A stretch of DNA of 64,000 nt from Escherichia phage vB_EcoM_VR20. The DNA is taken from the sequence record NC_028894.1; one strand, written 5' to 3'. The position numbers and the translations under genes were made by a program. The notes beneath the pieces were generated by a model. The model worked only from the letters and a program-made list of their open reading frames with translations, was not told the DNA's origin and made no database searches. Shown here one piece after another: positions 14,188 through 59,601 of the stretch (positions are counted from its first letter, which is position 1; the number at the start of each line of letters is the position of its first letter).

Positions 14188-14421
14188 TTAAACAATATCA
14201 GTCGGCGTAAACATCGCCGCGTTCTTAGTTCGCCAATCGGCTGCATCGGTCACTACAGTAGTATAGGCTGCAACGGCCGAAGGGAAAGTCTGATAATGAG
14301 CATTGGCAATACGGTGCTCGTTTGAATAGATTTCAAACGGAACAGATACTTCAACACCTTTAACTTCTTTACCTTCACCAGCTGGATGCGTAAAGGTTTT
14401 GATATTAACGAAACCACCCAT
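14188..14421 (-). CDS. soc: small outer capsid protein Soc
   Basis: 77 aa; VNIKTF, GKEV, AHYQTFPS, AAYTTV match T4 Soc as I recall it. Confidence 0.75.
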   Translation of the reverse strand: MGGFVNIKTFTHPAGEGKEVKGVEVSVPFEIYSNEHRIANAHYQTFPSAVAAYTTVVTDAADWRTKNAAMFTPTDIV

Positions 14422-14453
14422 AATTAACTCCTTTGTTGTTTAATTACAGGCGT

Positions 14454-14461
14454 ATTTATAA
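14454..14461 (-). promoter_or_regulatory. candidate T4-type late promoter TATAAATA upstream of soc
   Basis: Plus-strand tatttata, about 33 nt upstream of the soc start codon. Confidence 0.45.
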
Positions 14462-14602
14462 CTTACAATTTGGCGGCTCGCCAGAGTTTTTCAATAATCT
14501 CTCGGTCTATTTCTTTAGTTATTTCATTACGTAATAAGGTAGTAAGGGCTTTCGCCCTTTTCTTATTCAACTTTTTGAGTTGACGTTTATTTAAACGAGC
14601 CA

Positions 14603-15139
14603 TTAATAACCTCGGTCTTGGCGAGCAAAGTTTTCGGCATTTTTCAGATAATACAATTTAAAGATTTCTTCTGCAGTCAGTCCAAGACCATGGAACATGT
14701 TCAGAACAAAGTGCAGGATATCAATCATCTCAAATTTAATTTCGAGCTGGTCTTCAGGAGATAAATCATTAATCAGGGTTTGCTGCATTTCGCCATGTTG
14801 TGCTTTCCATGGTTTCCATACGGCCGAGGCAGCTTTCTCGCCATTGGACATGCCACCTAATGCAGTAATCAGTTCACGGAATTCATCATCAATATAATCT
14901 TTCTGGTTGCGGAGCCAGGTAACAACTTCACCAGCAGTCGCCAGGTTATCAGGATGTTCGTTATATTCTGGTTTTTCTTTAGCCAGACGAACCTGCAATG
15001 ATTTCTGCATATCAAGCATAACTTGCAGTGGGTCAGTGCCTTCAAAAATTGCATTATCATAAGCGCCTTGAGCTTTATCAACACCAGCAATCAGTTGAGA
15101 ACACTCGTTAAAATGAGCCATTATATTTTTCCTTATCAA
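14603..15139 (-). CDS. 56: dCTP pyrophosphatase (MazG-like dCTPase/dUTPase)
   Basis: 178 aa; size and position match T4 gene 56. Confidence 0.75.
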   Translation of the reverse strand: MIRKNIMAHFNECSQLIAGVDKAQGAYDNAIFEGTDPLQVMLDMQKSLQVRLAKEKPEYNEHPDNLATAGEVVTWLRNQKDYIDDEFRELITALGGMSNGEKAASAVWKPWKAQHGEMQQTLINDLSPEDQLEIKFEMIDILHFVLNMFHGLGLTAEEIFKLYYLKNAENFARQDRGY

Positions 15140-16635: not shown

Positions 16636-16854
16636 AGTTTCCTCATTTCAATGGCCCCGGAGGACCATTATACTGTAGGTTTATCGTCTTTGTTCTTACG
16701 CTTTTTTGATGGGATTTGTTCAGGGCCTTTATTGACAACTGCCCCGGAAGTTGTACCTGTTGCGATATTAGTTGGATTTCCACCTGCATCACCGGCAACC
16801 ATATTTTCGTTGATAAAATCTTTGAATGTTTTCATAACACCCCCTTTCCGCTAT

Positions 16855-17046
16855 TTATACAACGAAGATAGCTTTATCACCATTTGCATCAGTCACTTCA
16901 TAAGTGTCTTCATGATACAACGGAATAATCCAGGTAACACCATCATCAGCGATAACATGGATTGCTTCTTGGTCTTGCGACACGATTTCATATTCTTCAA
17001 AAATCTGGAAGACAGAAATCTTAGAGCCCGTACACATTGCACTCAT
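16855..17046 (-). CDS. small hypothetical protein
   Basis: 63-aa ORF. Confidence 0.35.
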   Translation of the reverse strand: MSAMCTGSKISVFQIFEEYEIVSQDQEAIHVIADDGVTWIIPLYHEDTYEVTDANGDKAIFVV

Positions 17047-21190: not shown

Positions 21191-21519
21191 CTCTTTTTCA
21201 TTTTAATCTTATCAATTTCATCTTGTATTTGCATTGTAACACACTTTTCTACATGCACTGCAAGCTCCGCTTTGCGGTCTTCGGAAGGGGTGCCGAAATC
21301 AACTGAAACTTTTCCAGATGGTTCAATTTTAATTCCGGTTACGTACACGATGTGACTGGACCCATCGGGAAGTGATAACAGAATTTCCTGTCGTACAGTT
21401 CCCATGGATTGCCGGATAATCTCCAAACTTTTTTCGTAGTAAGGTACAGAAGGAGCCTTAGCTCCCTCCGCATCTTTCTCGAAATTATCTAAATCAGATA
21501 AATCGATATCACTCATCAA
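21175..21519 (-). CDS. 40: gp40-like protein (head vertex assembly) by position and size
   Basis: 114 aa, same length as T4 gp40 and located between uvsX and 41. Confidence 0.5.
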   Translation of the reverse strand: MMSDIDLSDLDNFEKDAEGAKAPSVPYYEKSLEIIRQSMGTVRQEILLSLPDGSSHIVYVTGIKIEPSGKVSVDFGTPSEDRKAELAVHVEKCVTMQIQDEIDKIKMKKRWWKW

Positions 21520-22687
21520 GGTCTTCCATCATATCTAAATCGTTTTCGATGTCTGCCGCAGATGGTTTTGATTTGCCTTCTGGTGCAGAATATTTTTCAA
21601 CTTTCGAACTAATAAGCTCATCAACTTCGGCATCAACAACAGCATTGCTATCGATTGCACCCAGCTGGTAATGACGTTTGATTGCATCACGGAAAGGTTC
21701 GTGCTTGAACAGTGGGCCCCAGAATTCGGTGCAGTTGGTATCTTTTGCGCGCCATGATTTTTCTTCGCGGACCATTTCACCGGTCTCAACATCAAGATAT
21801 TCACGGTTATACCAACCAACTTTCGGTTTCACCACAAATCCGATTTCCATTGCCATATCAAGCAGGCCAGAATACGGGTCAATACCCCCATCGAATTTTA
21901 CATCAATGAAGAATTTACTTTTCTCTTTAACCATACGAGATTTTTCGGCGTTCAGAACAAATTGGAAACCTTCAAGTTCTTTACCAGTTTCTTTAATCTG
22001 GCGTTTACCGATAATGAATACGGTGTCCGCAGAATACATAACACCAGTACCGCCGGTCATAACGGTTTTGCTGTACATCTCAATCGTCTCGATTGTATGG
22101 TTAACCGCGACACAAGGAATATCCTTGATACTAAAGAACGGTGTTACAATACGGAACAGAGATTTCAGGGATTTAGCACGAGTCATATCGCCGACGACTT
22201 TTTCGTTCAATGCATCTTCTGTTTCTTTTTTCGATGCCATGTTACCGATTGAGTCAATAAAGATAATGACTTTTTCGCCACGCTCAATTGCTTCAAGCTG
22301 GTTAACCATATCAACTTTCAATTGTTCAACCGACTGGATTGGTGTGTGGATAACACGTTCCGGGTCTACTTTCATTGCACGAAGATATGCTTCTGTGATA
22401 CCAAATTCTGAATCATAGAACAAACAGATTGCTTCGGGGTATTTGTTCATATATGCAGAGACCATCGTTAAACCCATATTGGATTTAAAGTGTTTTGACG
22501 GACCAGCAAAAATAGTCAAACCTGACTGCATACCACCATCTAGTGCACCGCTGATTGCAATGTTCAGCATCGGGATTTTTGTACGAACTACATCTTTATC
22601 ATTAAAGAACTTGGACTTGGTAAGAGTCGCAGTCATTTTGGATGTAGAAGCTTTAATCAAACGGGATTTCAAATCTGCAATAGACAT
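21509..22687 (-). CDS. uvsX: UvsX recombinase (RecA-like)
   Basis: 392 aa; RecA-fold Walker A GPSKHFKS; size and position match T4 UvsX. Confidence 0.9.
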   Translation of the reverse strand: MSIADLKSRLIKASTSKMTATLTKSKFFNDKDVVRTKIPMLNIAISGALDGGMQSGLTIFAGPSKHFKSNMGLTMVSAYMNKYPEAICLFYDSEFGITEAYLRAMKVDPERVIHTPIQSVEQLKVDMVNQLEAIERGEKVIIFIDSIGNMASKKETEDALNEKVVGDMTRAKSLKSLFRIVTPFFSIKDIPCVAVNHTIETIEMYSKTVMTGGTGVMYSADTVFIIGKRQIKETGKELEGFQFVLNAEKSRMVKEKSKFFIDVKFDGGIDPYSGLLDMAMEIGFVVKPKVGWYNREYLDVETGEMVREEKSWRAKDTNCTEFWGPLFKHEPFRDAIKRHYQLGAIDSNAVVDAEVDELISSKVEKYSAPEGKSKPSAADIENDLDMMEDLDE

Positions 22688-22915
22688 TCATTTTTTCCAT
22701 AGGCACCATTATATTTTTCTCACAGGTTTAAGATAGGATAATTATATCACTGTATTTTAGAGCAATTAACGATTGAATCCACGATTAATTGCACGTTCAA
22801 CAATCTTCCGGGTCTGACGTTTGTCCCACCAGTACATAAAGCCAATACCAAATGCAGACAACAGCCATAGACCAATCAATAACATACCAATCATAATATT
22901 CTTCTCGCAGTTTGT

Positions 22916-23440
22916 TTAGTTAATACCTTGGCGTGCTTTCTCTTTAGCTACACATTTATTAATATAGCTCAGACGGTTTTGAGCAGAACGCTGATACATA
23001 TCGCGGTACTCATTAGCTTTTGGAGAACCCGTCTCCGCTGCCTGATAAGCTTCTGCGCGCATGATGTTTATCTGCATATTGATATATGACATGCAGACCT
23101 GTGAAATCTGGTTAACAGTGTCAAGGTCATTTTGTCGCTTGGTTTCTGCTTCCAGTTTGGCAATGATTTCGTCATGCTTCGCAGCTTGTTCGCGTTTGTA
23201 CTCAATTTCACGTTGAGCATATTTTGCGCAATTGTTTCCACATTGATTATTGGCGCGTTTGTAGATAAGTCCAGTGCCACCTTTGAAATCAAAGGAACCA
23301 TTATGCACCTGACGGTCTGCAGCAATTCGCGCTTTACCAATCTCACTGGCATTAACTACATCACCCTGGTAAGCACAACCAGATAGCAGCATAACAGCTG
23401 CGATAGCTAACTTTTTCATTTTATTTCCTAATTGAAACAT
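22916..23440 (-). CDS. putative lipoprotein
   Basis: 174 aa; signal peptide with lipobox LLSGC; occupies the T4 bgt/42 position. Confidence 0.5.
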   Translation of the reverse strand: MFQLGNKMKKLAIAAVMLLSGCAYQGDVVNASEIGKARIAADRQVHNGSFDFKGGTGLIYKRANNQCGNNCAKYAQREIEYKREQAAKHDEIIAKLEAETKRQNDLDTVNQISQVCMSYINMQINIMRAEAYQAAETGSPKANEYRDMYQRSAQNRLSYINKCVAKEKARQGIN

Positions 23441-23567
23441 TCATAACGGGCTTGGAGCCCCAAAAATACCCAACCCAAAATTAAAGTTGGAATCATATGC
23501 GGAGTCATTATTGCCCAATAGATTGACATACTAAAAAATGCAATCAGTACAATAATTGTAATTATCT

Positions 23568-23810
23568 TCATTTGGTTTCCTTGATGATAATTACTTGTGC
23601 GTTTGATTTACGTTCAGCAACGAGTGCCCAGATAAATGCAATAAACCATCCAACCATTGTCCAACCCAACAGAAGGTTAACAAAGAAGATTCCGCAATTA
23701 CTTTTGGTACCACGCAGTAGCGCGATAATCCACGGCAGAAAATATGCCAATGCAGCCAAGAATAAAGAACCAGCGCCAAGAACAAAAGTACCCGCAATTA
23801 TTGTTTCCAT
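23568..23810 (-). CDS. imm: small inner-membrane protein, Imm-like (superinfection immunity)
   Basis: 80 aa, two predicted transmembrane segments, directly beside gene 43 as T4 imm. Confidence 0.5.
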   Translation of the reverse strand: METIIAGTFVLGAGSLFLAALAYFLPWIIALLRGTKSNCGIFFVNLLLGWTMVGWFIAFIWALVAERKSNAQVIIIKETK

Positions 23811-23854
23811 TTTAATATCCTCAAGTTTGTCTAGTCATCAGTAGTTGATGAAAG

Positions 23855-23886
23855 AATAATACGGCAATCCATTGCCGTTGTAAACA
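23855..23886 (-). promoter_or_regulatory. sigma70-type early promoter, -35 GTTTACA, 17-bp spacer, -10 TATTAT, conserved CATCAACTACTGA leader
   Basis: Minus-strand motif upstream of imm. Confidence 0.5.
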
Positions 23887-23887
23887 C

Positions 23888-26602
23888 TTAAAAGTCAAAC
23901 ATATCAAAAAGAGTTGCTTTCTTTTCGTAATCAACCTTTGCAGCTTCAGAGAAACCTGTCAATGGCTTAACAAAAGTCTTCTGGAACAGTGTGTTGTAGT
24001 CCATCCATTGCAAGACCTGGTCGCGGATTTCAATCGGGAGTTCAATCCCCGATGGCCATGCAATCACAGTTTCACCAAACGGGTTACCGACTTTAAGAGG
24101 AAGCACATACACTTTTTCCCCTTCCATGATTTGCGGAACAGTCTTCAGACCTTTAGTTGCACGCATATAAGCAAGCACACCTTTGATATGAGCCGGGCAC
24201 TTAAATCCAGGGAAACCACCTTCATTATATTTCTGGATGTTGTTAACCGATGATACACCTGCGATGGTCATGTAGTTAAGCTCATTAAATTCCTTATTGA
24301 ATTCCTTGAAGTATGTCTGCAGAGATTCTTCACCTTCTTGCAGCATACGGCGAATACATTCTTTCAGAGCTTTCTGACATGCCTTTGGAGTACTCGACTT
24401 TTGAGTTTCCAGACCCATGATTTTCAATTTTGGAACAGCATATCGTGTGCCTTCCATATCGTACACGTTCAACGCATAACGCTTCTTCGCCGTCCAGAAT
24501 CCACCCACACCCTTAGAACCCAGCGGAGGACATGCAATCGCCTCACGGTCCATAAACATAAGGTGCTGTTTGTTGTTCATGTATTCAGCCAGCTCACGGA
24601 AAGCTTTATCGATTGCCGGTTCCAGACGGTCTTTCGCGAACTTGTCCATGAAGTCAACCAGGTGGTTTGTATCACGGAATTTAGATTCGCCACCAACCTT
24701 TTTAATCAGGTTATCGCATTGGATATAAATGGAGTCAGTATCGCCATAGAATACGTAAGTTTCACCGCTTGTACCGCAAACACCATCGAAGTATTCGTTA
24801 ACTTTACGCTCAATCCACTGCAATGCAAGTTGCCCGAAAGATGTAATCGCGGTTGCATTTCGCAGGTCAAAGTAACGGAACCAGATATTGCCCAGAGCAC
24901 CATAACAACTGTTGATAAGCAGTTTACGGTTAATCTGTGCGGTCATGCCTGCAACTTCTTCCATCTGCGCTTTATACAGCATACCATTTAGGACTGTTTG
25001 ATTCAGACCATGCAGGGCCGTTTTCATATTGTCATCAAAGTCATGGCGATAATCAACTTCAGGCTCGGTTGTACCAGTTCCTGGATTACGCAGAGCTTCC
25101 TTAATCAGTTCACCATTACGTTGAGCCGCAAGCATATAGCCTTTGTGTTCTTTACGCTGATTAAACACCTTGGTGACTTCTGTCGGAATAATACCCGCAA
25201 CATCTTTAAAATACATCATGCCATTTGGAGCACAACTAAATGTATCAGATGGGCGGTCAGCAGTTCCGGCGATGTATTCATGCATTTGCGCAGGAGCAAA
25301 TGAACCGGCAATCGTTTCTGGACTGATGTTAATCTGTCGGATGATGCTCGGATACAGAGATGTTAAGTCACAGCTCATTACATATTTGTATGCGTTCGGA
25401 ATCGGTTCCTTAACAAATGCACCAGGGAACGATTGACGAACATGCGATTTAGTTTCCGGGATAACCTTGTTTTGAGTCTTCAGGCTGTTAAAGATAATCG
25501 CATCCCAAGTTTTGATTGGGCTGAATACAGACTGAATCTGCATCTTTGCATAATAACCCATTGACTGACTCAGGTTAATAAACTGTCGCTTACGGTCAAT
25601 CTGCACAACACGATAAACGTCGATGATGTTATAAGAAATATACCGCTGGTGATTTGATTCGCGCAGTTTAGAAATCGGGCCATCATACGGAAGTTTACCA
25701 ACACCCAGTTCAGATTCTGCAACATAATCCAACGAATAAGACGGTTGGTTTGTGAAGCTGAACTTTTTATACAGGTCCAGATAATCCAGAACAGAGATAC
25801 CCAGAATCTGAATGATTTCTTGTTCTTCACCAAAGCCGTTGTTAATTACTTTAACTTTTGTACGACGATGTGGGCTCAGACGTTTTGCTGTAGCTTCACC
25901 AAATACATTTTTAAGGCGGTTGTAGATATATGGAATATCAAACTTCTCGATGTTCCAACCAGTTAACATAACCGGAGTTTTCTCGTTCCAGAATACCAAA
26001 TACTGCTGGAGCATTTCTTCTTCTGAATCGAAAGCCATATAAACAATTTTTTCCAGGATTTCTTCAGGAACTTCATCACCACCGTCTTCCTGCAGCTTAG
26101 CAGCAATATCAATAGACCATTGCTCCACAGTGGCGTATGGTGAGCCCAAAAGGTCAAAGACATAGAATTTATCGTCTACCGAATCATAGTGCGTCAGGGC
26201 GTCAATAGGGTGACGTGCTTCAGACGGTTCAGGGAACCCATCAGGAGATGTCACCTCGATATCGAAGTTAGCAACACGGATTTTACTTGAATCATATTTG
26301 ATTTCGTGTGGGTAACGGTCGGACAAGTATGCGAGTTTAAAGTCGTCCATACCCATAGCTTCGAGACCCATGTCATTCATTCGCTTCATCCACTGGGATG
26401 CATCACGCATGGAATCGAATTCTTTTTTCACACAACCTTTATTATAGATGTCTGTATACTTTGCAGCCTGGTCTTCGCGGGCATGCATAAACAAGCATGG
26501 AGCATAAGGGATTTCACGAACACGTTCATGACCATTCTTGTCAATATATCGTTCGTGTAGGTTGTCACCGATTTGTTCGATAGTTAAATAAAATTCTTGC
26601 AT
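23888..26602 (-). CDS. 43: DNA polymerase (family B) with 3'-5' exonuclease
   Basis: 904 aa; YGDTDS polymerase motif; FDIE exonuclease motif; size and position match T4 gp43. Confidence 0.9.
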   Translation of the reverse strand: MQEFYLTIEQIGDNLHERYIDKNGHERVREIPYAPCLFMHAREDQAAKYTDIYNKGCVKKEFDSMRDASQWMKRMNDMGLEAMGMDDFKLAYLSDRYPHEIKYDSSKIRVANFDIEVTSPDGFPEPSEARHPIDALTHYDSVDDKFYVFDLLGSPYATVEQWSIDIAAKLQEDGGDEVPEEILEKIVYMAFDSEEEMLQQYLVFWNEKTPVMLTGWNIEKFDIPYIYNRLKNVFGEATAKRLSPHRRTKVKVINNGFGEEQEIIQILGISVLDYLDLYKKFSFTNQPSYSLDYVAESELGVGKLPYDGPISKLRESNHQRYISYNIIDVYRVVQIDRKRQFINLSQSMGYYAKMQIQSVFSPIKTWDAIIFNSLKTQNKVIPETKSHVRQSFPGAFVKEPIPNAYKYVMSCDLTSLYPSIIRQINISPETIAGSFAPAQMHEYIAGTADRPSDTFSCAPNGMMYFKDVAGIIPTEVTKVFNQRKEHKGYMLAAQRNGELIKEALRNPGTGTTEPEVDYRHDFDDNMKTALHGLNQTVLNGMLYKAQMEEVAGMTAQINRKLLINSCYGALGNIWFRYFDLRNATAITSFGQLALQWIERKVNEYFDGVCGTSGETYVFYGDTDSIYIQCDNLIKKVGGESKFRDTNHLVDFMDKFAKDRLEPAIDKAFRELAEYMNNKQHLMFMDREAIACPPLGSKGVGGFWTAKKRYALNVYDMEGTRYAVPKLKIMGLETQKSSTPKACQKALKECIRRMLQEGEESLQTYFKEFNKEFNELNYMTIAGVSSVNNIQKYNEGGFPGFKCPAHIKGVLAYMRATKGLKTVPQIMEGEKVYVLPLKVGNPFGETVIAWPSGIELPIEIRDQVLQWMDYNTLFQKTFVKPLTGFSEAAKVDYEKKATLFDMFDF

Positions 26603-56405: not shown

Positions 56406-56682
56406 TAATTAATCGCACATCCTGGTCATAGGTCAGGAGGCTACGAGTGATAATACCCTTACAAGGTCCAGAAATAAATTCCAGAGTAAAGTAAGGAACC
56501 AACTTCATCAAGCGAATACTCGGAGCAGTGCAACGAAATCTGGACCCAACAAAAGGTCCAGACAAAAACACATACTCAAAGAAATTTGCTTTATTAAAGA
56601 TTTCAAAATTCTTTACGAAATCTTCAGACCTAACTTTTGGAATAAAATAGATTTGGTCAAAAAGCTCTTCATGGGTCATCAT
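56383..56682 (-). CDS. small hypothetical protein
   Basis: 99-aa ORF. Confidence 0.4.
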   Translation of the reverse strand: MMTHEELFDQIYFIPKVRSEDFVKNFEIFNKANFFEYVFLSGPFVGSRFRCTAPSIRLMKLVPYFTLEFISGPCKGIITRSLLTYDQDVRLISDWKKYV

Positions 56683-57206
56683 TGCATTCCTATCACAAAG
56701 AATAACGGCAAAGGCTTATCACCTTGACACATAAATTTATTCATCATTACCTGATAAGCTTCATAGAACTTATCCATTGCAGGGAGGCGAATAGGTTCTT
56801 CAATAATGATTAAAAGACGCGTAAAACGCAATCCACGGTACTTATGGAAATTATCTTCATCAAGGAAACTGCGTACAGTATCATAGACAACGAATCCAGG
56901 TCGCTCAACATTAAGATGTGGTTGTGCCTTAGAAACCCGCTTTATTATATTACAGATTTCTCGTGAGCGATGCGAAGAACTCGACATAACAATCACATCA
57001 TTACCTTTGGAAACCCAATCCGCAGCAAACTGCGCAATGGCACTTGTTTTACCTGTTTGTCGTCCACCGTCAAGTCTAAGGGTACCAAACTCTTGCATTC
57101 TTGAAGCTGGTTCATACCAGGTGTATTGGTCTGAATCTAAACGTTCAATGGCGCGTTCAGCGAAGGCGTGCATTAAGGTTAGATAAATGGGAGTTAAAAA
57201 TTTCAT
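56679..57206 (-). CDS. small P-loop NTPase
   Basis: 175 aa; Walker A GGRQTGKTS; Walker B-like LLIIIEEP. Confidence 0.45.
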   Translation of the reverse strand: MKFLTPIYLTLMHAFAERAIERLDSDQYTWYEPASRMQEFGTLRLDGGRQTGKTSAIAQFAADWVSKGNDVIVMSSSSHRSREICNIIKRVSKAQPHLNVERPGFVVYDTVRSFLDEDNFHKYRGLRFTRLLIIIEEPIRLPAMDKFYEAYQVMMNKFMCQGDKPLPLFFVIGMQ

Positions 57207-57366
57207 AGTTGTCTCTTAGTTGTGGGGCCATTCCTTGGCACATAATTCGTCCATGTATCCGTATGTAAACCCTTTACCGCACTTGGGCTCGACCTTATTA
57301 CAGGTAGGGAAAGGCCCATCACTCAGAGGACGCGACGTTCATGAGGAGAGGGTCGGCTTGCCTTTA
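57207..57366. other. unusually G+C-rich 160-bp intergenic region, possible structured RNA or regulatory element
   Basis: No convincing ORF; central stretch roughly 55-60% G+C by hand count in an AT-rich genome; plus-strand ORF 57220..57417 judged spurious. Confidence 0.3.
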
Positions 57367-57666
57367 TTAGAAAGAACCAGAGCCTTTAATTGTGTTCTGG
57401 CGACCTTTATTTTCTAATTCAGAATGGTCAATTTCATATGCTTGTGCTACGCCAAAGGCCTTTTTAACTTTAGCTAAAGAACCTTTAGATGTAACAATAT
57501 TAAAAGTATTACCTTTAGTAAAATCAACCAAATCCACTTGTACACCTTGTTTACCGAGGCTTGCGACAATAGCATCAACATATTGTTGGTCTAAATTGCC
57601 CTGGACTCCGATTTGAAATGCTTTAGGAGCTTTAGCTTCTGTGATAAATTCTTGATAAGTTTTCAT
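57367..57666 (-). CDS. internal-protein-like gene 1 with capsid-targeting sequence
   Basis: 99 aa beginning MKTYQEFITEAK, matching the conserved N-terminal targeting and prohead-protease cleavage sequence of T4 internal proteins. Confidence 0.6.
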   Translation of the reverse strand: MKTYQEFITEAKAPKAFQIGVQGNLDQQYVDAIVASLGKQGVQVDLVDFTKGNTFNIVTSKGSLAKVKKAFGVAQAYEIDHSELENKGRQNTIKGSGSF

Positions 57667-57722
57667 TTATTCTCTCCAAGTTGATGGGATAATTATGCAC
57701 TATCCCATCAAAAAGTAAACAG

Positions 57723-57986
57723 TTATGCTTTACCGCCAGAAACAATACCAAAGGTCTCAAAGTCCCATTCAATATCGTCAACATCAACTTTCTTACCAGC
57801 AACCACGAATGCGATTTCGCGACGTTTTGCATAGGTGACAATTTCTTTACCATCACCGCCAAAGAAAGAATAACCATTGCGCTTCATGGTGCCAAAGTCT
57901 TCAGCATCACCAGCAAACGCGCGGACTTTAAAGGAACCAGCAGGAGCTTTAGCAGATTCAGTAATAAATTCTTGATAAGTTTTCAT
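57723..57986 (-). CDS. internal-protein-like gene 2 with capsid-targeting sequence
   Basis: 87 aa beginning MKTYQEFITESAK. Confidence 0.6.
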   Translation of the reverse strand: MKTYQEFITESAKAPAGSFKVRAFAGDAEDFGTMKRNGYSFFGGDGKEIVTYAKRREIAFVVAGKKVDVDDIEWDFETFGIVSGGKA

Positions 57987-57999
57987 AATGTCTCTTTAA

Positions 58000-58314
58000 T
58001 TAAGCTTTAGGGAAATCGCGCAAAAACGCATCATAAAGTTTATTACCAATACGACGGAATGCTTTTGCTGCATGAACGTTATCCGGGTTTGCAATTTTAA
58101 TCTGCATTACATGACTACCCGCCCATGATTTAGCTTCGTCATAATAACCTTTAATTTCTTTAATAGTCTTGCGTTTGCCGCCAGGACCATCAACAGTAAT
58201 TTTCCACGAACCCGTGCTTGTTTCACTTGGTGGGGTTAATTGTTCAATCCAGACATAACCGCCTTCAACACGTTTTTGGGTGGATTCAGTAATAAATTCT
58301 TGATAAGTTTTCAT
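58000..58314 (-). CDS. internal-protein-like gene 3 with capsid-targeting sequence (start trimmed to MKTYQEFITE)
   Basis: Track ORF 58000..58353 contains MKTYQEFITEST at residue 14; trimmed to that Met. Confidence 0.55.
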   Translation of the reverse strand: MKTYQEFITESTQKRVEGGYVWIEQLTPPSETSTGSWKITVDGPGGKRKTIKEIKGYYDEAKSWAGSHVMQIKIANPDNVHAAKAFRRIGNKLYDAFLRDFPKA

Positions 58315-58362
58315 TTTATATTCCATTGTTTGGTTGATAAAATCATTATACAACCTTTTTAG

Positions 58363-58779
58363 TTAAGCGTACACAGCTTTCCCATAGTATTTGTACCAGG
58401 TAGGCTTTTGAGAAATTTTCTCATTCAATCTGGCTTGACTGATTTCAATTGACCAGATTGATGGTTGATAATCATTCTTCCATTCATCAGGAATATCATT
58501 TAAATCTTGGGTAGAAATATCTTTTATGTTAAACCCTCGCTTTAAACATTCCGCAATAAGTTCTTGATGACGGTTTTTAAGGAACAAAAGTTTATCATAA
58601 AAGAAGGTGACATGACCAGTCCCTAAAAGAAAAGATGATGGGATTTTAAAGTCAGAAACCTTTTTACCATTTTGTACATGTTTGCGAACCGCACCAAACA
58701 CGCGAGGAAGCTCACGATATTCAGCCATAAGATGTTGGTCAGCAAGTTCAGATACCAGGGTTAAATTAATGCGAGTCAT
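58363..58779 (-). CDS. denV: endonuclease V (pyrimidine dimer DNA glycosylase)
   Basis: 138 aa; [35 protein letters not shown] and [10 protein letters not shown] match T4 DenV as I recall. Confidence 0.9.
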
Positions 58780-58805
58780 GTTTGTTCCTCCAAGTAGTTG
58801 ATGGG

Positions 58806-58838
58806 ATAATAATACATCAATACGAGGAGGTTGTAAAC
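58806..58838 (-). promoter_or_regulatory. sigma70-type early promoter, -35 GTTTACA, 17-bp spacer, -10 TATTAT, TATCCCATCAACTACTTGGAGGA leader
   Basis: Minus-strand motif upstream of denV, overlapping the 3' end of the internal-protein-like gene 4. Confidence 0.5.
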
Positions 58839-59120
58839 TTATTTTGTGGAAGCAGCCGAGATATATTTTTCAAGACGCTGTTTCATCAGCGAGCCGTTCT
58901 TAGCGATTTCTTCCGGTTTATCGCACATACGCAATAGAGCTTCAAGCTTAGTGATATCAGATGTCCGCTCAAATTTGCGAGTATCTACCTTACTAGCAAG
59001 TTCGGAAATACGCGCTAACAGACTTTCGGCTTCTACCAAAGCTGTGCCCAGCTTAGTTGCAAATGTGTCAGTAGCTTCATTAAGAGTGGTCACGGTCAAA
59101 AATTCATTATAGGTTTTCAT
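58839..59120 (-). CDS. internal-protein-like gene 4 with divergent capsid-targeting sequence
   Basis: 93 aa beginning [15 protein letters not shown]; between e and denV where T4 carries ipIII and ipII. Confidence 0.55.
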
Positions 59121-59601
59121 ATGCTTTCCAAGTTCCTGTTTTAAATGTTGAGATTACACGTTTCGCTCGATTAGGTGTTTGTTTGTACCATTTGGATTGA
59201 GCCAGGTTAACAGCAGCTTCGTCCCAACGTTTCTGTTGAAGCAACCGAAGGGAGTTAGTAAACCCAGCAACGCCGGCTTCACCCATTTGGAAGACCATAT
59301 TAATCAGGGCACAGCGACGAACTTCGTCAAGACTATCATACACTGGTTTTAATTTAGCATTACGCATAACACTCGCACGTGCTTTTTCCACTGAACGGTT
59401 AAACAAGGTTTCAGCTTCAACCTGGGTTATGCGACCATTGCAGACGCGACCCATGAGCTTGTCGAGCTCGGCACGAGCAACATCTTTAGACGGGTTCTTA
59501 GTTATCAGTTGCCCGATACCGATGGTCCAAAAGCCTTCGGTATCTTTATACAAATCCAACTTACAACCTTCATCTATGCGTAACATTTCGAATATATTCA
59601 T
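59107..59601 (-). CDS. e: lysozyme (endolysin)
   Basis: 164 aa; [12 protein letters not shown]...[16 protein letters not shown] matches T4 lysozyme with catalytic Glu/Asp/Thr context. Confidence 0.9.

Follow-up and report, generated by a model that had tools for sequence, protein, structure and literature searches.

Four small genes in a 64,000-nucleotide (nt) stretch of Escherichia phage vB_EcoM_VR20 (NC_028894.1; the whole stretch analysed is referred to below as the window) share one N-terminus and form the denV/e internal protein (IP, or Ip) locus of Gaprivervirus. The cassette is that of a T4-like coliphage of the VR25/VR7/SP18 type and consists of ip5, ip10, a gene of an unnamed Ip family (here orf87) and ip7. 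Both the genus and the cassette, a typical IP cassette that is already annotated, are known, and the finding is real but ordinary. Assignment of the predicted products to the internal proteins is supported by their capsid-targeting leader, an L/I-x-E protease site, their position at the denV/e locus and their family membership. Judging by T4, it is very probable that these products are packaged and processed, and there is about an even chance that they inhibit nuclease-based host defences. The account as a whole, in which a Gaprivervirus Ip locus encodes packaged, processed and injected nuclease inhibitors, is our best explanation and a rather likely one.

All four open reading frames (ORFs) are on the minus strand and start with ATG, and a first-pass annotation made from the DNA letters had described them, with their common N-terminus, correctly (Table 1). 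Three begin with MKTYQEFITE, followed by Ala in ip7 and by Ser in orf87 and ip10, and ip5 carries a variant with Val at position 10; all four have a capsid-targeting sequence (CTS) of the MKT(Y/F)x(E/D)F(I/L)xE type. A six-frame regular-expression scan of the window recovered this leader in these ORFs only, together with a weaker relative, MKTFKDFINE, at 16668–16835. With four copies inside 1.75 kb and otherwise one weak relative in 64 kb, the leaders are clustered far beyond chance. In the alignment of the Ip7 family, which has a mean column identity of 67%, the first 12 residues are invariant except for position 4 (Tyr, with Phe in one sequence) and position 5 (Gln or Lys), and the AlphaFold model of Ip7 shows a compact domain to which the leader is attached as a disordered tail.

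A denV-anchored survey placed the leader in a broader context. Among 80 viral contigs fetched, 30 carried leader-bearing ORFs, 66 in total, all on the denV strand and with a maximum of four per locus, and splitting them by body similarity gave 17 families. The first L/I-x-E ended at residue 10 in 63 of the 66, and the residue that followed was mostly Ala (39) or Ser (14). Thr was the commonest residue at position 9 (31 of 66, compared with 22 for Ala), which makes MKTYQEFITE an ordinary form of the leader and no deviation from the MKTYQEFIAE of T4. Together with genome comparisons, these families at denV loci confirmed the earlier description of the IP locus as a hotspot of gene turnover.

The shared N-terminus could also be read as a recombination or translation-initiation module kept at the DNA level, in front of early cytoplasmic proteins that are expressed and not packaged. 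Indeed, the leader-coding DNA is near-identical between copies, with 30 of 30 nt the same in ip10 and orf87 and 28 of 30 when either is compared with ip7 (two synonymous differences), as this alternative would predict. Against it, however, the leader is conserved at the protein level over the 17 families, including the protease site and the small residue after it, and in T4 the 10-residue leader is enough to bring a foreign protein into the capsid (work of Mullaney and Black in 1996, cited in PMC3012670 and PMC13326640). We therefore regard cytoplasmic, unpackaged products as highly improbable.

Removal of the leader at an L/I-x-E site had been proposed, and all four proteins have a predicted site of this kind followed by a small residue. 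In three of them (ITE/A in Ip7, ITE/S in Orf87 and Ip10; the slash marks the predicted cut) it lies at residue 10. In Ip5, Val at position 10 leaves no L/I-x-E at residues 8–10 and the first site is L13-N14-E15, followed by Ala (LNE/A at residue 15). The long Ip5 leader resembles the 19-residue leader of T4 IPI (MKTFKEFTSTTTPVSTITE/A), in which ITE/A is reached at residue 19. The predicted mature products have masses of 8.3–10.5 kDa and isoelectric points (pI) of 6.2–9.7, close in size and pI to T4 IPI* (8.0 kDa, pI 9.0) and IPII (9.8 kDa, pI 9.6).

The weaker relative of the leader belongs to a 55-amino-acid (aa), gp61.1-like ORF on the minus strand beside the primase gene, which starts MKTFKDFINE/N and thereby has both a capsid-targeting-like leader and an I-x-E site. 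Upstream, at 16852–16859 on the minus strand, is an exact match to the T4 late promoter, TATAAATA, which ends 16 nt before the ATG of this ORF. The ORF lies outside both canonical IP loci. Its family (phrog_1823) has members in 1,246 phage records, some of them from Acinetobacter and Aeromonas phages. From these sequence features, its product could be an unrecognised packaged peptide.

The position of the four genes is likewise that of an IP cassette. In transcriptional order, e is followed by ip5, denV, ip10, orf87, ip7 and vs.8, which puts all Ip genes between vs.8 and e, around denV, at the hyperplastic denV/e IP locus. This order bears out the earlier reading of one gene between e and denV and three downstream of denV; T4, in contrast, has e, ipIII, ipII, denV and differs in both the number and the arrangement of its Ip genes. 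At the DNA level, Escherichia phage vB_EcoM_VR25 (Gaprivervirus, Tevenvirinae) matches the whole region with 95.6% identity, and Shigella phage SP18 matches part of it with 97.5% identity. In VR25 the cassette is annotated as ip7, 'internal head protein (similar to VR7 gp127)', ip10, denV, ip5 and e, and the SP18 counterparts are two genes labelled 'internal head protein' and Ip10, with ip5 absent. The Ip5, Ip7 and Ip10 families are said to have been named from T-even phages by Repoila in 1994, and denV/e is reportedly the classic hyperplastic IP locus.

A further IP locus of VR25 adjoins 57B (VR25 70432–71641) and comprises ip6, an unnamed internal head protein gene, ip9 and another small ORF; it corresponds to the sequence just past the end of the window. 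This would probably bring the phage's total to seven or eight leader-bearing proteins. The Ip7, Ip9 and Ip5 genes of RB32 are found at this other locus adjoining 57B, whereas Ip7 and Ip5 of the window are encoded at denV/e, indicating that the same families move between the two IP loci.

Comparison with annotated phage proteins showed that the cassette genes are not novel, contrary to what the first-pass annotation had supposed, since Ip7, Ip10 and Ip5 are named families, the fourth is annotated, and GenBank holds copies 99–100% identical to the cassette proteins in phages TH44, VR7, TH41 and VR25. With the named Ip7, Ip10 and Ip5 proteins, annotated in T2, RB32, PP01, wV7, VR7, VR25 and SP18, they share full-length homology, the leader and the kind of locus. 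The four proteins fall into three PHROGs families, phrog_2667, phrog_3966 and phrog_3499, and two of these carry the label 'internal head protein'. Taken together, the four families span Tequatrovirus, Mosigvirus, Gaprivervirus and T4-like phages of Klebsiella and Enterobacter, with conservation over the full length.

The ip7 product (phrog_2667, E 8e-43) is 100% identical to that of phage TH44 and 96% identical to VR25 ip7, but only 49% identical to the Ip7 of T2 and RB32 (RB32 E 8e-29); tblastn found the family in 282 phage records. Ip10 (phrog_3966, E 3e-32; 188 records by tblastn) is 100% identical to TH41 and SP18 Ip10 and 71% identical to PP01 Ip10. Its ORF can be extended to a TTG at 58353, and the ATG at 58314 was chosen because it yields the leader and matches the VR25 start. 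Ip5 (phrog_3499, 'internal head protein', E 2e-46) is 98.9% identical to VR25 ip5, its closest copy among the 495 records in which tblastn detected the family, and 53.6% identical to RB32 Ip5 (E 1.5e-26). The Gaprivervirus Ip alleles are thus strongly diverged from the Tequatrovirus ones, and their target specificity could differ.

The product of orf87 is 100% identical to VR7 ORF127c and belongs to the VR7 gp127/RB69ORF125c type, found by tblastn in 206 phage records and often annotated as 'internal head protein'. Homologues 70–78% identical to it are present in about 180 Tequatrovirus and Mosigvirus genomes. No Ip number was found for this family in the annotations examined, and its identification as Ip4, Ip5, Ip7 or Ip9 was rejected, as it does not match these RB32 proteins. 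It is neutral (pI 6.2) rather than basic. The homologue search yielded few relatives for Ip10 (2) and for Orf87 (5).

Behind the common leader, the four bodies are unrelated to each other, in agreement with the first-pass annotation. The mature parts gave only blastp matches with E > 0.08 on a tiny database, and family profile comparison (hhalign) aligned 19 columns between Ip7 and Orf87 and 16 columns between Ip7 and Ip10, in both cases the leader only. Ip7 and Orf87 are both placed in phrog_2667; paralogy of the two was rejected, because hhalign aligned just the leader plus 'KAP', and their joint family is a clustering artefact. Where clustering is driven by the leader in this way, automated annotation can mistake unrelated internal proteins for members of a single family.

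Nor are the bodies related to those of the T4 proteins, and here too the earlier reading stood. Orthology to IPI, IPII or IPIII, which the first-pass annotation had itself named as a possible refutation of its proposal, was rejected, with a best pairwise E of 0.3 or worse (blastp, 8-sequence database). Sequence searches of solved structures returned no match for any of the four, IPI* (2JUB) included, although 2JUB is in the PDB library and was retrieved by the sequence of IPI* itself. Pfam contained no significant domain for any of the cassette proteins. What they have in common with T4 IPI*, IPII and IPIII is the capsid-targeting leader, the L/I-x-E site, small size and a mostly basic charge, and ipII and ipIII are also located at denV/e; the mature parts lack similarity, and this phage lacks the glucosyl-hydroxymethylcytosine (glucosyl-hmC) pathway whose product GmrSD senses. 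The AlphaFold model of Ip7, built from the family alignment, has a predicted local distance difference test score (pLDDT) of 74 overall and about 85 in the core (residues 11–80). Its topology is beta-alpha-beta-beta-alpha-beta followed by a C-terminal helix, a predicted ferredoxin-like fold, and its top structural match in BFVD is 'Ip7 protein, phage MX01'. The Ip10 model is unreliable (pLDDT 54, alignment of 3 sequences).

Early-type promoters with stem-loops precede ip7, denV and ip10, and these three upstream regions share a 21-nt repeat (family D3), TATCCCATCAAC, after the promoter. The hairpin upstream of ip7, TTGATGGGATA...TATCCCATCAA, is the strongest, folding at -21 kcal/mol (z -4.7), with none of 200 shuffles folding as well. 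The denV promoter, found by promoter scan, has 10 of 12 matches, and its region folds at -15.5 kcal/mol (z -3.5). The ip10 promoter was seen by alignment of the upstream regions, and its stem-loop is weak (-7.4 kcal/mol, z -1.5). No such repeat precedes orf87 or ip5, which ride behind upstream genes. The start of orf87 lies 13 nt after ip10, and the two are therefore probably co-transcribed. The ip5 ATG is located 14 nt inside the 3' end of e (overlap 59107–59120), so that ip5 has no promoter of its own, which suggests co-transcription with e, a gene expressed late in T4, and possibly translational coupling to it.

Flanking of IP genes by early promoter and stem-loop elements has been described, with a proposed role in shuffling, and the count of known IP variants had passed 30 by 2007 (PMC2839356, reporting Repoila 1994 for the elements). 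In the PeSL cassettes of RB49 and phi1, small variable genes are likewise bordered by short promoter-plus-hairpin repeats, through which modules are plausibly shuffled (PMC2839356). The elements of the IP locus are analogues and not homologues of PeSL (PMC2839356), having T4-early-type promoters and AT-rich hairpins without polyG/polyC stems, as in the window.

Table 1 Features of the denV/e internal protein locus in the window, in order of position. Slashes mark predicted cleavage sites.
Feature	Position	Strand	Details
vs.8	56679–57206		neighbouring gene
Non-coding spacer ip7/vs.8	57207–57366	none	160 nt; GC fraction 0.51, the region's highest (0.30–0.49 elsewhere in the profiled stretch)
ip7-family gene	57367–57666	-	99 aa; leader MKTYQEFITE/AKA; predicted mature ~89 aa, 9.5 kDa, pI 9.3
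Early-type promoter and strong overlapping stem-loop upstream of ip7	57667–57722	-	GTTTAC 57720–57715, 17-nt spacer, CATAAT 57697–57692
orf87, unnamed Ip family (VR7 gp127/RB69ORF125c type)	57723–57986	-	87 aa; leader MKTYQEFITE/SAK; predicted mature ~77 aa, 8.3 kDa, pI 6.2
ip10-family gene	58000–58314	-	104 aa; leader MKTYQEFITE/STQ; predicted mature ~94 aa, 10.5 kDa, pI 9.7
Early-type promoter upstream of ip10	58345–58374	-	GTGTAC 58374–58369 (overlaps denV stop codon), 18-nt spacer, TG-TATAAT 58352–58345
denV (endonuclease V)	58363–58779	-	Pfam Pyr_excise, E 1e-15; phrog_1183, E 5e-62; conserved gene inside the cassette
Early-type promoter and overlapping stem-loop upstream of denV	58780–58838	-	TTTACA 58837–58832, 17-nt spacer, TATTAT 58814–58809, then TATCCCATCAAC
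ip5-family gene	58839–59120	-	93 aa; leader 15 residues, then /ATD; predicted mature ~78 aa, 8.6 kDa, pI 8.8
e	59107–59601		neighbouring gene; 3' end overlaps ip5

By inference from T4, the 10-residue CTS would dock each protein on the scaffolding core of the assembling prohead, and the prohead protease (gp21) would then cut the leader off behind I-T-E in three of them and behind L-N-E (residue 15) in Ip5. The mature proteins of 8–10.5 kDa would be left embedded in the packaged DNA and be ejected into the cell with it. The leader-coding DNA and the promoter/stem-loop repeats are likely recombination sites at which unrelated bodies would be shuffled in and out of the locus. By analogy with Ip1–3 of T4, each mature protein would, once inside the host, most likely act as a narrow-specificity, stoichiometric inhibitor of a nuclease that attacks the modified phage DNA as it enters, for instance by type IV restriction of the GmrSD or a similar kind.

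The functional part of this account agrees with published work on T4. Rao and Black (2010, PMC3012670) described the T-even internal proteins as diverse defence proteins with only the CTS in common. In T4, each of the three proteins Ip1, Ip2 and Ip3 (IPI, IPII and IPIII) blocks a different GmrSD type IV restriction system, and none protects against the target of another (Silas 2025, PMC12373910), which makes the earlier statement that IPI* is the only internal protein of known function outdated. The idea of injected anti-defence effectors put forward in the first-pass annotation matches the standard hypothesis in the literature, but its extension to the present families found no reproducible match when ip4–10 of T4-like phages were screened against a GmrSD panel (PMC12373910, Supplementary Fig. 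9). Apparent interactions in that panel, such as that of ip7 with CLS_011, failed to reproduce (PMC12373910). The ip4–10 alleles of the screen may differ from those of the window, and no later functional assignment for ip4–10 was found in the literature.

Besides this negative screen, several observations weigh against packaged nuclease inhibitors. Direct evidence for these four products in virions, processed or injected, was found neither here nor in the literature, and virion proteomics for these families was absent from the searchable literature. The perfect T4 late promoter TATAAATA was not found in the cassette, and one-mismatch matches to it occurred below the chance rate; packaging needs late expression, which must accordingly be supplied by read-through or by the persistence of protein made early. 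Recognition of early-type promoters only is also what early, unpackaged proteins would lead one to expect. The cassette proteins matched neither PADLOC nor any solved structure, and the ferredoxin-like fold modelled for Ip7 is generic and holds no functional pointer.

A physical role would dispense with specific host targets altogether, the packaged proteins serving to neutralise DNA charge or to aid packaging or ejection. Three of the four predicted mature proteins are basic (pI 8.8–9.7), lysines of T4 internal proteins contact DNA phosphates, with about 1000 Ip molecules embedded in the DNA (PMC3012670), and no GmrSD target was found for ip4–10 (PMC12373910). The 87-aa protein, however, is neutral, all three T4 Ips proved to have specific targets (PMC12373910), and a purely physical function leaves unexplained why 17 unrelated families occur at one locus, with constant gene gain and loss and in varied combinations. 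We consider this role unlikely.

The enemy that these proteins would face may itself differ from that of T4. Homologues of T4 gp42 (dCMP hydroxymethylase, the hmC synthase) and beta-glucosyltransferase were not detected in the window, in which the control, uvsX, was found at 79% identity. Between uvsX and imm, at the position of T4 gp42/beta-glucosyltransferase (window 21512–23900, uvsX to gene 43), the sole ORF is one of 174 aa on the minus strand (22916–23440) that encodes a lipoprotein-like product (MKKLAIAAVMLLSGC...). The VR25 annotation, moreover, includes a-gt.2 to a-gt.5 and no a-gt. Gaprivervirus is reported to be without hmC synthase while keeping dCTPase, denA, denB and alc, from which a non-canonical base of unknown nature has been inferred (PMC8056088, PMC12115623), and its DNA probably carries an unidentified cytosine modification. 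In a lineage without hmC synthase and glucosyltransferases, the Ip targets may differ from those of T4, and a glucosyl-hmC-specific GmrSD may not be the relevant enemy, a further point to set against inhibition of GmrSD-like enzymes. It is conceivable, though we hold it only tentatively, that the diverged Ip alleles (for example Ip7, at 49% to the T2 type) and the 87-aa Ip are injected to inhibit nucleases that sense this modification, or else defence systems other than those of the GmrSD family. Their target class would then be one with which internal proteins have so far not been connected.

Going further, the injected proteins might have targets other than restriction enzymes, such as abortive infection, toxin-antitoxin or nucleotide-signalling systems, or host physiology. 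The negative GmrSD screen of ip4–10 (PMC12373910) and the missing glucosyl-hmC pathway are compatible with this, as is the spread of the same Ip families over genera whose DNA modifications are reported or inferred to be different (Tequatrovirus, Mosigvirus and Gaprivervirus, and phages of Klebsiella and Enterobacter). Yet nothing positive was found for such targets, every Ip characterised so far acts on a type IV restriction enzyme, and co-delivery with the DNA best suits the blocking of enzymes that act on entering DNA. Non-restriction targets appear improbable to us, and inhibition of nucleases remains the preferred function.

Two further features of the region were recorded. The spacer between ip7 and vs.8 is inside a stretch that aligns at 94–97% with VR25, SP18 and VR7; Rfam contained no match to it, its fold was not significant (z -0.7), and the promoter scan gave one weak promoter-like site in it, at 57269–57242. 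At VR25 14193–14887, corresponding to about 13.9–14.6 kb of the window, three tandem small genes are annotated as soc, 'head protein' and 'virion structural protein similar to T4 Soc', and, going by this annotation, the gene for the outer capsid protein may have been expanded in tandem there.

Internal proteins arrive with the phage DNA and can therefore act before any phage gene is expressed. Dozens of Ip families exist beyond the three of T4, and the four of this cassette are typical uncharacterised examples, whose genes are already sequenced and annotated and of which the Ip5, Ip7 and Ip10 families have already been screened once. The only extra value of the cassette is as a test set from a lineage with apparently different DNA chemistry, which could separate Ips that counter glucosyl-hmC sensors from those that do not.

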